Shown in pieces: positions 1,857 through 4,599 of a stretch of 8,661 nucleotides of DNA. Both the position numbers and the translations under genes were made by a program. Under the pieces are notes generated by a model that saw only the letters and a program-made list of their open reading frames with translations, did no database searches and was not told the origin of the DNA. This stretch comes from a virus (taxonomy: Duplodnaviria > Heunggongvirae > Uroviricota > Caudoviricetes): IMG/VR virus record IMGVR_UViG_2713897161_000004. The stretch is one strand, 5' to 3'. Every line of letters begins with the position of its first letter. Position 1 is the stretch's first letter.

Positions 1857-2350
1857 ATCAGATATTCACGGTGATTTTGCTCGTGTTGGTAGGATTTGTC
1901 GTAGGTAATGTCTGGAGCGACAGAGGATGGCAAAAAAAATGGGCGGAGCGTGATGCTGCCGAATTATCTCAAGAGGTAAATGTCCAATTTGCTGCTCGAA
2001 TAATTGAACAGGGGCGAAGTATATCCCGTGATGAGGCTGTTAAAGATGCACAACAGAAAGCCGCTGAAATTTCTGCCAGGGCTGCTGATCTGTCTGATAG
2101 TGTTAACCAGCTGCGTGCCGAAGCAACAAAATATGCCATACGCCTTGACGCAGCGCAGCATACCGCAAATCTTGCCGCTGCCGTCAGAGGCAAAACAACC
2201 AAAGCCGCCGAAGGAATGCTCACCAACATGCTCGGAGATATTGCAGCAGAAGCTCAGCTTTATGCTGAAATTGCTGACAAACGCTACATCGCAGGAGTGA
2301 CTTGTCAACGGATTTATGAATCTTTAAGAGATAAAAAATATCAGATGTAG
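1853..2350 (+). CDS. Rz-like inner-membrane spanin (i-spanin), 165 aa, GTG start
   Basis: ORF 1853..2350: N-terminal transmembrane segment ([18 protein letters not shown]) followed by a long charged, Ala/Gln-rich and probably coiled-coil periplasmic region. GTG start overlaps the endolysin stop as GTGA (1853-1856); SD GGGGGA at 1841-1846. Confidence 0.75.
2046..2300 (+). CDS. Rz1-like outer-membrane lipoprotein spanin (o-spanin), embedded in the +1 frame of Rz
   Basis: ORF 2004..2300 lies entirely inside Rz. From the ATG at 2046: [23 protein letters not shown]|[42 protein letters not shown]..., a signal peptide with lipobox L-T-S-C and a proline-rich mature part with C-terminal-region cysteines. 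SD GAGG at 2033-2036. Start could also be the ATG at 2031. Confidence 0.65.
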
Positions 2351-2533
2351 ATTAATATTAAATCGGATTATTTTTAGCGCTGAATGTGAAATTTAAATAA
2401 AAAGGACTCTTCCATGAGTCAAAATCCTTGAAATCTTAAGGGTAAGATAAAAGGTCATTAGACAGAATGACACGTTTTATTAATAAATAAAGCTATTGTT
2501 TCATTCGTGTGTTTTTCTTTACAAAAGTAATCC

Positions 2534-2562
2534 TTGCTATGGTTGGTTAATCATGCGTTAAT
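2534..2562 (+). promoter_or_regulatory. Candidate sigma70 promoter for the cold-shock gene (-35 TTGCTA 2534-2539, 17-bp spacer, -10 GTTAAT 2557-2562), with AT-rich UP-like region upstream
   Basis: Hexamers read directly; the arrangement resembles my recollection of the cspA promoter (TTGCAT / CTTAAT) and would give a 5' UTR of about 145 nt. Many alternative -10-like hexamers exist in this AT-rich DNA. Confidence 0.3.
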
Positions 2563-2713
2563 GGTGTTCTGGTTTGTTACAAAATTATCTGAAGCAGTCA
2601 TTGTTATAATTTTATTATTTGTACCTCTTGAGATTTCCTTGTTGGTTTTTCTTTCTGATATTTTTTTTCGGACCATTCTGCCCAAGGGCTAACTTCTTCA
2701 AAAGGTAATAATG

Positions 2714-2926
2714 ATGTCTAACAAAATGACTGGTTTAGTGAAATGGTTTAACCCTGAAAAAGGTTTTGGTTTCATCACGCCGAAAGATGGTAGCAAAGAT
2801 GTGTTTGTGCATTTCTCAGCTATTCAGAGCAACGATTTCAAAACGTTAACTGAGAATCAGGAAGTCGAATTTGGTATTGAGAACGGACCTAAAGGCCCTG
2901 CAGCTGTTCATGTAGTGGCACTTTGA
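2714..2926 (+). CDS. cspI: Cold-shock protein, CspA family (CspI-like), 70 aa
   Basis: ORF 2711..2926: (M)[70 protein letters not shown], with RNP1 (KGFGFI) and RNP2 (VFVHF) motifs. Start taken at the second ATG (2714) to give the family-typical MSNKMTG N-terminus; 2711 is also possible. SD AAGG at about 2701-2704. Confidence 0.85.
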
Positions 2927-3130
2927 GGTAGAAAATATTACAAACCATATTCACTTTAGATGCCCGTGTTGCCATGGTTCTCAGTATAGAACATCATCTT
3001 TTGATGTTTCTGACAGAAATCCTTTCGGGGCAAAATGTATCTTTTGTAAATCAATGATGATTACATTTGATAATATTTCACAATACTTAAATGTTAGCCA
3101 TCTGTCGTTAGATTTAAGAAAGTGAAAATG

Positions 3131-3155
3131 AAGGCTCCTTCGGGAGCTTTTTTGC
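3131..3155 (+). terminator. Rho-independent terminator: stem GCTCC / GGAGC with TTCG loop, followed by a six-T tract
   Basis: AAGGCTCC-TTCG-GGAGCTTTTTTGC at 3131-3155: GC-rich 5-bp stem extendable by A-U and G-U pairs, UUCG tetraloop, T-tract at 3148-3153. It lies about 205 nt downstream of the cspI stop and 43 nt upstream of the next ORF. Confidence 0.6.
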
Positions 3156-3197
3156 TTAGTGTCTAGTCGATGGATACTCACATATTACGGTAACATT

Positions 3198-3428
3198 ATG
3201 AAAAAAATAATAGTTTTTTTTAACTCTGAACCAGCAATGGTAGTGCCAGTGATGACCGGAGTTAACACCATCATGCGTGAATATCCAAATGGCGAAACAA
3301 CACACCTCACTGTAATGGCTGCAGGGTTTCCATCTCTGACCGGAGATCATAAAGTCATTTATGTAGCAGCGGATCGACATGTAACTTCAGAAGAAATTCT
3401 GGAAGCAGCAATGAGACTCTTGAATTGA
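3198..3428 (+). CDS. Small hypothetical protein (76 aa from ATG 3198; 51 aa if started at internal ATG 3273), in the position of a Qin-type cold-shock-associated small gene (ynfN-like)
   Basis: ORF 3159..3428 (the track uses a GTG start): MKKIIVFFNSEPAMVVPVMTGVNTIMREYPNGETTHLTVMAAGFPSLTGDHKVIYVAADRHVTSEEILEAAMRLLN. No family recognised from sequence; weak RBS for either start. Called on position and ORF integrity only. Confidence 0.45.
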   Translation: MKKIIVFFNSEPAMVVPVMTGVNTIMREYPNGETTHLTVMAAGFPSLTGDHKVIYVAADRHVTSEEILEAAMRLLN

Positions 3429-3600
3429 TTTGATTCTAATGCATTGATAATAAATGATAATCATCTTTATCTGTTTGTGTGAAATTTAGACCGTCGTATG
3501 TTGATTATTGCGATGTTTCATCTTATCTTTTATACGTTTGCTCCATATAATTGACACTACTGTGTACCAGGACAGTCATAACAGACTAAAAGAGGAAATG

Positions 3601-3774
3601 ATGAACATTGAAGAGTTAAAAACAAAAACAGAAGCAGATATTTCTGAATATATAACAAAAAAAATCATTGAGCTTAAGAAAAAGACCGGGAAAGAAGTTA
3701 CCAGTATCCAGTTTACTGCACGGGAAAAAATGACTGGTCTTGAAAGCTATGATATCAAGATTGATTTAATCTAG
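3601..3774 (+). CDS. gnsB: GnsA/GnsB family protein (GnsB-like), 57 aa
   Basis: Tail of ORF 3508..3774 from the ATG at 3601: MNIEELKTKTEADISEYITKKIIELKKKTGKEVTSIQFTAREKMTGLESYDIKIDLI, which matches the Gns family pattern (MNIEELK...GKEV...FTAREKMTGLESYD.KI). SD GAGG at 3592-3595. Confidence 0.75.
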   Translation: MNIEELKTKTEADISEYITKKIIELKKKTGKEVTSIQFTAREKMTGLESYDIKIDLI

Positions 3775-3836
3775 CATGTTTATAGTATTAGCATCAATTT
3801 CTCATCAGATGCTATTCAACAATACAAATTACCCAT

Positions 3837-3863
3837 AAACCTCGTTTTTACGGGGTTTTGTTA
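3837..3863 (+). terminator. Weak terminator-like hairpin downstream of the gnsB-like gene (AAACCTCG / CGGGGTTT stem, then TTTTGTT)
   Basis: AAACCTCG-TTTTTA-CGGGGTTTTGTT; the stem includes a G-U pair and partly uses the T-tract. Confidence 0.3.
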
Positions 3864-4069
3864 TATTTAAACATTACCGAATAGATATAAATCTCGATTG
3901 TCGATGGTATTGGTTGTGTGACAATACCTAGTCTTTCCGGTATGCCTGAAGAGAATACAAACGACAGATTATGTAAGGGAAACGCGCTGAAACTTTCACT
4001 CTTTCATGCTGAGTGATTTGACGTTATATTTTTAGCCGCAAGTGAAGAGCAAACGAATGGAGCGACAAA

Positions 4070-4276
4070 ATGCATAAAGATCAATACACTGATGCCCCGT
4101 CCCAGGAGCAGGTTCGTGTAAAAACTATGCTTAATAGCACCATTTCGATGGGTTACCCGGATGTTGTAATTGCATGTATAGAACATCAAGTATCTCTGGA
4201 AGCATTCAGGGCAATTGAGGCCGCGTTAGTAAAGCACGATAAGAATACGAAGGATTATTCCCTGGTGGTTGACTGA
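4070..4276 (+). CDS. Small hypothetical protein, 68 aa, immediately upstream of the cos region
   Basis: ORF 4070..4276: [68 protein letters not shown], preceded by SD GGAG with an 8-nt spacer. No transmembrane segment, no recognised motif. Confidence 0.5.
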
Positions 4277-4599
4277 TCACCATAACTGCTAACCATTCTG
4301 ACCATTTCACAAGTGACAGAGTCAATATCGTATTCTGTCACTGTAAGGCTAATACAGTACTGCAATTCAACTACAGCAATGCCTCGTATTTAGGTGAATT
4401 TACAATATCGTCCAGTTCGGATGCCGGCTGCATTTCTGAAGATAAGGCATTTCGGTTCGCGTATTTTCCCCTCATGCTCGTCAGTCCTGCGCGTAGTAAG
4501 AAACAGGACACTCACACTAATTTGTGTGGGCATGCTGTGATGTCCTTCTGAATTATCCCCATGCCATTATGTAAAGCTCTGTTTCAGATGCTCGTCACG

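Follow-up and report, generated by a model that had tools for sequence, protein, structure and literature searches.

The defective prophage Qin of Escherichia coli K-12 carries a short run of genes that has been connected with cold shock and that lies behind the phage lysis genes. Qin has been found in 48% of strains, and its cold-shock genes are regarded as horizontally acquired. PMC7406224 describes K-12 CspI as a cold-inducible chaperone of RNA and single-stranded DNA and, after Wang 1999, gives cspI itself as cold-induced, while the neighbouring small protein YnfR rises strongly after cold shock (PMC6001520) and ynfQ carries the label "cold shock induced" (PMC11228462). For the last gene of the run, gnsB, and its paralogue gnsA, what is known comes from overexpression in K-12, which raises the level of unsaturated fatty acids, suppresses both fabA6(Ts) and a cold-sensitive secG null, and at 25 C also rescues relA fadR cells. 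The cassette as such is already known, being annotated in K-12 and called a moron in a viable phage. Here we discuss its counterpart in an 8,661-nucleotide (nt) stretch of DNA (IMG/VR virus record IMGVR_UViG_2713897161_000004; the whole stretch is hereafter called the window), where an earlier note had described an AT-rich island of cold-shock genes between the spanins and cos.

We read the region as a cspI-ynfQ-(ynfR)-ynfN-gnsB moron of a Qin-type defective lambdoid prophage, set in a variable slot that Rz/Rz1 bounds on one side and the ybcW-cos-terminase backbone on the other, and put the probability of this reading at roughly 0.88. It is carried by what can be observed on this DNA and its relatives, that is, the identities of the genes, each of which has hits in Pfam, NCBIfam and PHROG, their base composition, their position relative to cos, the purifying selection acting on them and the presence of the cassette in viable phages. 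The features of the cargo, in window coordinates, are as follows.

2534..2562, plus strand: predicted cspI promoter, inferred from a footprint, with -35 element TTGCTA at 2534-2539, a 17-nt spacer and extended -10 element TGc-GTTAAT at 2554-2562.
2567..2713, plus strand: cspI 5' leader of the cspA thermoregulator type, ~147 nt (Rfam RF01766).
2714..2926, plus strand: cspI, cold-shock protein of 70 amino acids (aa); PF00313 (cold-shock domain, CSD), E = 1.6e-31, residues 5-69.
2937..3125, plus strand: ynfQ, predicted zinc-ribbon protein of the YmcF type, 62 aa, two CxxC pairs; PF23641, E = 6.2e-34.
3128..3166, plus strand: ynfR remnant of 12 codons, against 21 in K-12; a RefSeq pseudogene ("too short").
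3130..3157, plus strand: intrinsic terminator after ynfQ, GGCTCC-TTCG-GGAGC and then T6; fold -14.5 kcal/mol, z = -2.84, the hairpin flagged by the terminator scan.
3198..3428, plus strand: ynfN in its full-length 76-aa form; phrog_3425, E = 1e-55; RefSeq YnfN.
3501..3529, plus strand: putative gnsB promoter, with -35 element TTGATT at 3501-3506, a 17-nt spacer and -10 element TATCTT at 3524-3529.
3601..3774, plus strand: gnsB, 57 aa; PF08178, E = 2.1e-33, profile positions 1-54 of 54.
3837..3868, plus strand: intrinsic terminator after gnsB, at the right end of the cargo; found by the terminator scan, fold -11 kcal/mol, z = -2.2.

The CspA-family gene with a long leader that the earlier note had recognised is there in both its parts. 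CspI is 100% identical to K-12 CspI and 79% identical to CspG, and both RNA-binding signatures of the family, RNP1 (KGFGFI) and RNP2 (VFVHF), are visible in its translation. Upstream lies a long structured 5' untranslated region (UTR) of the cspA thermoregulator type. The whole RF01766 model aligns to 2567-2972, scoring 111 bits where the gathering score is 78 (E = 2e-28); its 3' hairpin aligns weakly, within the ynfQ coding sequence. The leader found here measures ~147 nt; for the cspI 5' UTR, Wang et al. (1999) reportedly gave 145 nt. Leaders of the same Rfam family also occur at the Citrobacter prophage, at a chromosomal locus (L012) and at cspG. Just upstream of the model start at 2567 sit the predicted promoter blocks, CTTGC and CATGC-TTAATG, which in a footprint alignment are invariant in the window, K-12 Qin, the Citrobacter prophage and L012 while their flanks diverge. 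Three further open reading frames (ORFs) that some phage records annotate around here, one on the plus strand (2534-2692) and two on the minus strand (2981-3181 and 3156-3380), were rejected, as each lies across a conserved gene or the leader RNA.

A csp gene, a gns gene and two small ORFs made up the gene content as first listed, which is incomplete, as a fifth gene, ynfQ, had been missed. Its match spans PF23641 positions 1-62 of 62, the two cysteine pairs read CPCC and CIFC, and RefSeq annotates it, on identical DNA and on K-12, as ymcF/ynfQ, cold-shock small protein. Its annotated start is an ATT, separated from the cspI stop by 10 nt, and it has no ATG, GTG or TTG start. An ATT at this distance from the csp stop is kept in the window, K-12 ynfQ, K-12 ymcF, Tritos and the Citrobacter prophage; the open frame upstream of it holds no canonical start in Citrobacter or in E. 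coli prophages of the Qin type, whereas ymcF keeps the ATT but has in-frame TTG/GTG codons upstream. In all ymcF/ynfQ-like genes examined, in a comparison of window positions 2924-2939 with the equivalent sites in L002 (K-12), L003, L005, L010 and L012, the ATT start stands 10 nt after the csp stop with GAGG or AAGG just upstream. The conserved ATT, together with the lack of a canonical in-frame start, suggests termination-reinitiation coupling and possibly sensitivity to initiation factor 3 (IF3). No terminator was found between cspI and ynfQ (fold z = +0.38). Behind ynfQ, the ynfR remnant overlaps the stem of the terminator hairpin, its length is not conserved, and this micro-ORF may owe its existence to the terminator sequence.

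The next gene, ynfN, stands here in a longer form than the one annotated in K-12. A run of seven T residues in K-12 (L002, ~6110-6185, minus strand) corresponds to a run of eight in the window (3198-3272), which shifts the K-12 frame and leaves an annotated product of 51 aa from an internal ATG. Homologues at 74-51% identity, in Citrobacter and elsewhere, keep the N-terminal 25 residues, and the K-12 gene is a frameshifted remnant of an ancestral 76-aa gene. The AlphaFold2 (AF2) model of YnfN has a confident fold (predicted local distance difference test score, pLDDT, 85), for which structure comparison gave no informative match and no detectable structural relative. The GnsB-like gene of the earlier note, for its part, is confirmed as a member of the GnsA/GnsB family by its length and its full-length profile match; its product is 93% identical to K-12 GnsB and 63% to GnsA, and it matches the GnsA structures 4XO1 and 4XO2 with E = 8e-20. 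In its putative promoter TTGATT and TATCTT are invariant between E. coli and Citrobacter, and the spacer and flanks vary.

The composition of the region sets it apart. Positions 2340-4300 have a guanine-cytosine (GC) content of 35.7%, where the remainder of the window has 50.5% (binomial z = -13.1), in agreement with the AT-richness claimed for exactly this interval. The core (2351-3860) falls to 34.3%, against 47.5% in the lysis cassette and 53.4% in the small and large terminase genes (4829-6807), so that the cargo differs in base composition from neighbouring phage genes as a moron does. Among 60-nt windows, those at or below 25% GC make up 9.3% inside 2340-4300 and 0.27% outside, the lowest (18%) lying at 3032. 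The contrast of about 23% with about 57% GC that had been reported is therefore real, but its figures were picked extremes, for terminase GC averages 53-54%, with single 60-nt windows there reaching 68%. The Citrobacter copy of the cassette, at 37% GC between flanks of 51-54%, repeats the pattern. The gaps between genes measure 363 nt from Rz to cspI, 10 from cspI to ynfQ, 72 from ynfQ to ynfN, 172 from ynfN to gnsB, 295 from gnsB to the 68-aa ORF and 552 from there to the small terminase gene.

Where the island ends depends on the backbone that frames it, listed here with the neighbouring features.

1 to ~768, minus strand: copy of insertion sequence IS26, transposase ORF 1-723, abutting the prophage just upstream of the holin.
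1853..2350, plus strand: rzpQ, Rz-type i-spanin; Pfam DUF2514, E = 3.6e-38; rzpQ/rzoQ are annotated in strain 573 and K-12.
~2046-2300: Rz1/rzoQ, embedded in rzpQ.
4070..4276, plus strand: 68-aa ORF, homologue of lambda p79 and DLP12 YbcW; phrog_657, E = 5e-48.
4643..4654, no strand assigned: 12-nt cohesive end GGGCGGGAGCGT as predicted from the Tritos termini, which put the cosN nick at 4642/4643.
4829..5323, plus strand: terminase small subunit (DUF1441 type); PF07278, E = 2.4e-42; phrog_141, E = 1e-73.

The left backbone border of the island is rzpQ, and the right-hand backbone begins at the terminase small subunit. Between them, homology with K-12 Qin stops at 3911, and homology with the right arm of lambda begins at 3946 and runs to 4421, with 82.6% nt identity over 3954-4421 (lambda 47629-48090). 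Within this lambda-like segment falls the 68-aa ORF, which has 43.5% GC, shares 79% aa identity with lambda p79, is called YbcW in phage records, adjoins cos in phages that have bor instead of the cassette, and does not accompany the cassette in Citrobacter. It belongs to the backbone beside cos and not, as had been assumed, to the island cargo. The island proper is therefore ~1.6 kb long, from the Rz stop (2350) to ~3911-3950; of the "about 2 kb" first proposed, the AT-rich cargo stands and the size does not. The 76-aa and 68-aa ORFs themselves do exist at 3198-3428 and 4070-4276 in the ORF list. They had been called small ORFs of no recognisable function, and while both now have identities, as YnfN and as a lambda p79/YbcW homologue, it remains true that neither has a known function.

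The position of cos follows from the linear record of phage Tritos, whose right end, ...CCTGCCACG, aligns to window position 4642 and whose left end, GGGCGGGAGCGTCGCGGAAAAAGGCTAGTTTTTG, is identical to window 4643-4676. The lambda ends are ...GTTACG on the right and gggcggcgacctcgcgg on the left, and the site here, GGGCGGGAGCGT-CGCGG, compares with GGGCGGCGACCT-CGCGG in lambda. Homology thus predicts a lambda-type cos, with a 12-nt end and upstream of the small terminase gene. With Rz/Rz1 ending at 2350 and cos placed at 4642/4643, the cargo lies between the spanins and cos, as had been claimed. The match with strain 573, HannyBb and Tritos breaks off at 4676, 34 nt past the predicted nick, and 4676/4677 is a mosaic joint at which cosB and the small-terminase module have been exchanged (DUF1441 variants or Nu1 type). 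In the last 200 nt of phage mEp460_ev081 (L008), about 70-80 nt of the post-cos segment are directly duplicated (GGCTAGTTTTTGAAATTT...TTTTTTGT twice), which may be an artefact of assembly or linearisation.

Related phages show what else this slot can hold. Lambda has Rz, bor and p78 (both on the minus strand), p79 and cos; PhiR30_1 has Rz, bor and ybcV (again both minus), ybcW, cos and Nu1; its sibling PhiR63_1 has RzpQ, csp, ynfN, gnsB, ybcW, cos and Nu1; and in Tritos the cassette is followed by ybcV and ybcW. A lambda-like Citrobacter prophage runs from Rz (DUF2514) through csp, a ymcF-like gene, ynfN and gns directly to Nu1. Variable cargo between conserved backbone genes (Rz-[cargo]-ybcW-cos) is what a moron presents, and the identification of this position as the one where lambda carries bor is upheld, with bor in lambda and PhiR30_1 and the cassette in PhiR63_1. 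Viable phages with the cassette in the corresponding slot are Tritos, HannyBb and PhiR63_1. Among 50,697 phage records, ynfN or gnsB was found in only 7-8, all of them Escherichia phages and, where examined, lambdoid. The region is matched in 2644 of 5426 complete E. coli genomes, in agreement with the published prevalence of Qin, and at least 80% of it is covered in 1068.

The cassette genes are under purifying selection, with ratios of nonsynonymous to synonymous substitution rates (dN/dS) of 0.02 for cspI, 0.14 for ynfQ, 0.11 for ynfN and 0.07 for gnsB when compared with the Citrobacter copy, a comparison in which synonymous sites are near saturation (proportion of synonymous differences, pS, 0.54-0.69). 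The 68-aa ORF, compared with lambda p79, gives 0.32, and this value and that of ynfN speak against the earlier note's own proviso that its small ORFs might lack conservation.

How these genes are expressed can be approached through signals on this DNA and through published data on relatives. A consensus promoter scan was not enriched (see below), and support for the promoters rests instead on phylogenetic footprints and on the expression of relatives; the terminator scan found 4 terminator-like sites against 1.6 +/- 1.1 expected. In RNA sequencing (RNA-seq) of a Tritos lysogen, CspI and YnfN were transcribed 93-fold and 27-fold above the prophage background, and both were classed as morons (PMC9928086). 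Azidothymidine (AZT) induces cspI, ynfQ and ynfN 6.5-, 5.9- and 5.8-fold, and their dependence on SspA is 38-, 42- and 51-fold (PMC11228462), while in long-term stationary phase, where a cspI mutant is outcompeted, the profiles of cspI and ynfN are nearly the same (PMC7406224). These matching figures suggest that cspI, ynfQ and ynfN behave as a single unit of transcription in which some polymerases pass the first terminator. The view that the cargo is independently regulated finds support in the conserved promoter-like blocks, the cspA-type leader, the two predicted terminators and the Tritos transcripts, but, with only 10 nt between cspI and ynfQ and with this joint expression, does not extend to separate regulation of cspI, ynfQ and ynfN.

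A working scheme would run as follows. At a predicted position, cspI would have a sigma-70 promoter to itself, of the extended -10 kind, and would be transcribed behind a ~147-nt cspA-type leader that would make the mRNA stable and translatable at low temperature. From the same transcript ynfQ, with its AUU start 10 nt behind the cspI stop, would be made, probably by coupled re-initiation; transcription would then meet the hairpin terminator after ynfQ, and part of it would read through to ynfN. With a putative promoter and a terminator of its own, gnsB would yield a product that, when abundant, may shift membrane lipids towards unsaturated fatty acids. In an intact phage, the genes would probably also be read through by Q-antiterminated late transcription, as all are co-oriented with the late operon.

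That last point lends itself to a plainer account, in which the genes are mere late-operon passengers, without promoters or terminators of their own and expressed only in lytic growth. All five are indeed co-oriented with the lysis and terminase genes, the consensus promoter scan is not enriched, and the predicted terminators would be ignored by Q-modified RNA polymerase, which in lambda late transcription passes over terminators. Yet CspI and YnfN stand far above the prophage background in the Tritos lysogen, and in K-12, where Qin is lytically incompetent, cspI, ynfQ, ynfR and ynfN nonetheless respond to cold, AZT or stationary phase; the promoter blocks and the cspA-type leader are kept even at a non-prophage locus, and terminator-like sites exceed expectation, all of which leaves the passenger account scarcely credible. 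One could instead suppose that the cassette serves the phage, its RNA chaperone/antiterminator and lipid modulator permitting induction, late transcription or lysis at low temperature. Its place directly after the lysis genes, in the orientation of the late operon, would suit such a role, as would its retention by viable phages with differing packaging modules and the nature of CspA-family proteins as nucleic-acid chaperones that act on expression via antitermination (PMC11228462). We consider this improbable all the same, since genes at the end of the late transcript would be made too late to aid late transcription, purifying selection is seen on the cassette in long-dead prophages such as Qin, and paralogues of its genes occupy non-prophage loci; these last two facts point to a host-level function.

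The pairing of ynfN with gnsB invites comparison with the proposed YmcE-GnsA pair, and hence the notion of a toxin-antitoxin (TA) or addiction module that stabilises the prophage. Pfam and RefSeq name the family "GnsA/GnsB toxin", ymcE-gnsA is listed in the literature among the type II TA systems of E. coli, and ynfN lies upstream of gnsB as ymcE lies upstream of gnsA. But YnfN is no relative of YmcE (20% identity when aligned globally), and 172 nt with a conserved promoter-like block separate ynfN from gnsB, whereas ymcE overlaps gnsA. Moreover, gnsB is intact in K-12 although ynfN is frameshifted, plasmid-expressed gnsB rescues growth in published work instead of killing cells, and ynfN homologues occur in phage PHB10 and at L012 with no gns gene nearby. 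The "toxin" label does not fit the pair, which was rejected as a type II TA module, and an addiction module seems very improbable. The cold-linked moron remains our preferred reading, within which a further grouping can be entertained. The trio of csp, a ymcF-like gene and ynfN also occurs outside the Rz-cos slot, in PHB10 (L016, 2228-3728), where it adjoins an integrase and umuDC, and at L012 (3037-4228), together with a second ynfN paralogue 35% identical; neither locus has a gns gene. Among the arrangements compared, the tightest linkage is that of csp with the ymcF-like gene. The movement of the trio among these contexts suggests that YnfQ and YnfN are partners or modulators of the cold-inducible Csp, and the conserved unit may accordingly be a functional trio of csp, a YmcF-like zinc ribbon and, usually, YnfN, and not csp with random ORFs, a tentative proposal that we hold unlikely. 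Were it true, the YmcF-like protein would be made in dependence on the translation of Csp, and the amount of IF3, which discriminates against AUU starts, might adjust its synthesis.

Several points weigh against the moron reading or narrow it. The consensus promoter scan gave 9 sites, compared with 9.7 +/- 3.4 in shuffled sequences, and listed neither of the two proposed promoters, that of gnsB being below threshold; GnsB was not among the reported Tritos morons in lysogeny broth (LB) at 37 C (PMC9928086), and the expression of gnsB on its own is putative. Lysogen expression, cold induction and the Gns overexpression phenotypes come from the literature on relatives and not from this sequence; any net benefit of the whole cassette in the cold is inferred. 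As cspI is also induced in long-term stationary phase and by AZT, "cold module" may be too narrow a term, although the theme of cold adaptation that had been proposed is supported by the published cold induction of cspI and ynfR, the label of ynfQ and the phenotypes of gnsB overexpression. Finally, the phage context of this copy is dead, IS26 having replaced all upstream of the holin and the endolysin gene being frameshifted.

Roughly one complete E. coli genome in two carries the cassette, which is real but ordinary and counts for little as a discovery. The gain is one of bookkeeping: the island is 1.6 kb long with five genes and not four, the 68-aa ORF is a gene of the lambda backbone, and K-12 ynfN is a frameshifted remnant. 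Three conserved small proteins, YnfQ, YnfN and YbcW/p79, are still without a known function.

The window as a whole, on the evidence of its ORF list and of megablast against complete E. coli genomes, is a lambdoid prophage of the Qin type in decay, located at ydfJ/ydfI in E. coli. From left to right it comprises IS26, the holin (essQ/essD), ydfR, a frameshifted rrrQ, rzpQ/rzoQ, the AT-rich region, the DUF1441 small terminase, a truncated large terminase, a tail-fibre fragment and ydfI. Positions 769-8661 are 100% identical at the nt level (megablast) to E. coli ET881 and SW071610, and 769-4676 are 99.95% identical to strain 573; in other E. coli Qin-type prophages, too, identity to the window begins at 769, after IS26. 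As IS26 replaces all upstream of the holin, the Q antiterminator and the late-promoter region are missing from this copy. The rrrQ endolysin gene (1324-1856) is split by a frameshift into overlapping ORFs of 66 and 129 aa, a mark of prophage decay; it is intact at 177 codons in K-12 and strain 573, and the aligned lengths of 3908 and 3909 nt imply one single-base indel somewhere in 769-4676. Within 5323-7440, the large terminase ORF is truncated and runs into the tail-fibre fragment (6825-7209, 90.6% identical to K-12 stfQ), followed by ydfI from 7441; relative to fuller Qin copies, head, tail, tfaQ, pinQ, ydfK and ydfJ are deleted.

Set against the systems already described, the locus stands closest to K-12 Qin, with which it shares the ydfJ/ydfI site, orientation and the gene order rzpQ-cspI-ynfQ-ynfR-ynfN-gnsB (b1553-b1550 in K-12), with 92.7% nt identity over window 765-3911 and protein identities of 100% for CspI, 92% for YnfQ and 93% for GnsB. 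It differs past gnsB, where Qin has ydfO (DUF1398), ynfO and nohA and the window has the YbcW-like ORF, cos and the DUF1441 small terminase; in ynfN, of 51 aa and frameshifted in K-12 but 76 aa here; in ynfR, with 21 codons there and 12 here; and in the IS26 upstream, the frameshifted rrrQ and the truncated terL of the window. Tritos (from E. coli LF82), HannyBb, PhiR63_1, mEp460_ev081 and 2H10 likewise carry the cassette after RzpQ, at 91.6-99.9% nt identity, and Tritos has the cos end in common with the window; but all of them are viable or complete, unlike the window with its remnant in decay, and Tritos has an extra ybcV (DUF1398) between gnsB and ybcW and PhiR63_1 has packaging of the Nu1 type.

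More distant is the K-12 chromosomal set cspG-ymcF-ymcE-gnsA, which resembles the cassette in its order of csp, ymcF-like and gns genes (protein identities 79%, 68% and 63%), in its cspA-type leader and in the ATT start 10 nt after the csp stop. Unlike the cassette it lies outside any recognised prophage, its third gene, ymcE, is unrelated to ynfN and overlaps gnsA, and nt identity is only ~73-74% and confined to the coding parts. The bor moron of lambda (Rz-bor-p78-p79-cos), finally, shares with the cassette the slot between Rz and p79/YbcW and a cargo dispensable for lytic growth, but the genes are unrelated, and bor lies on the strand opposite to the late operon, with which the csp cassette is co-oriented. 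The one confers serum resistance, the other belongs to cold and stress physiology.

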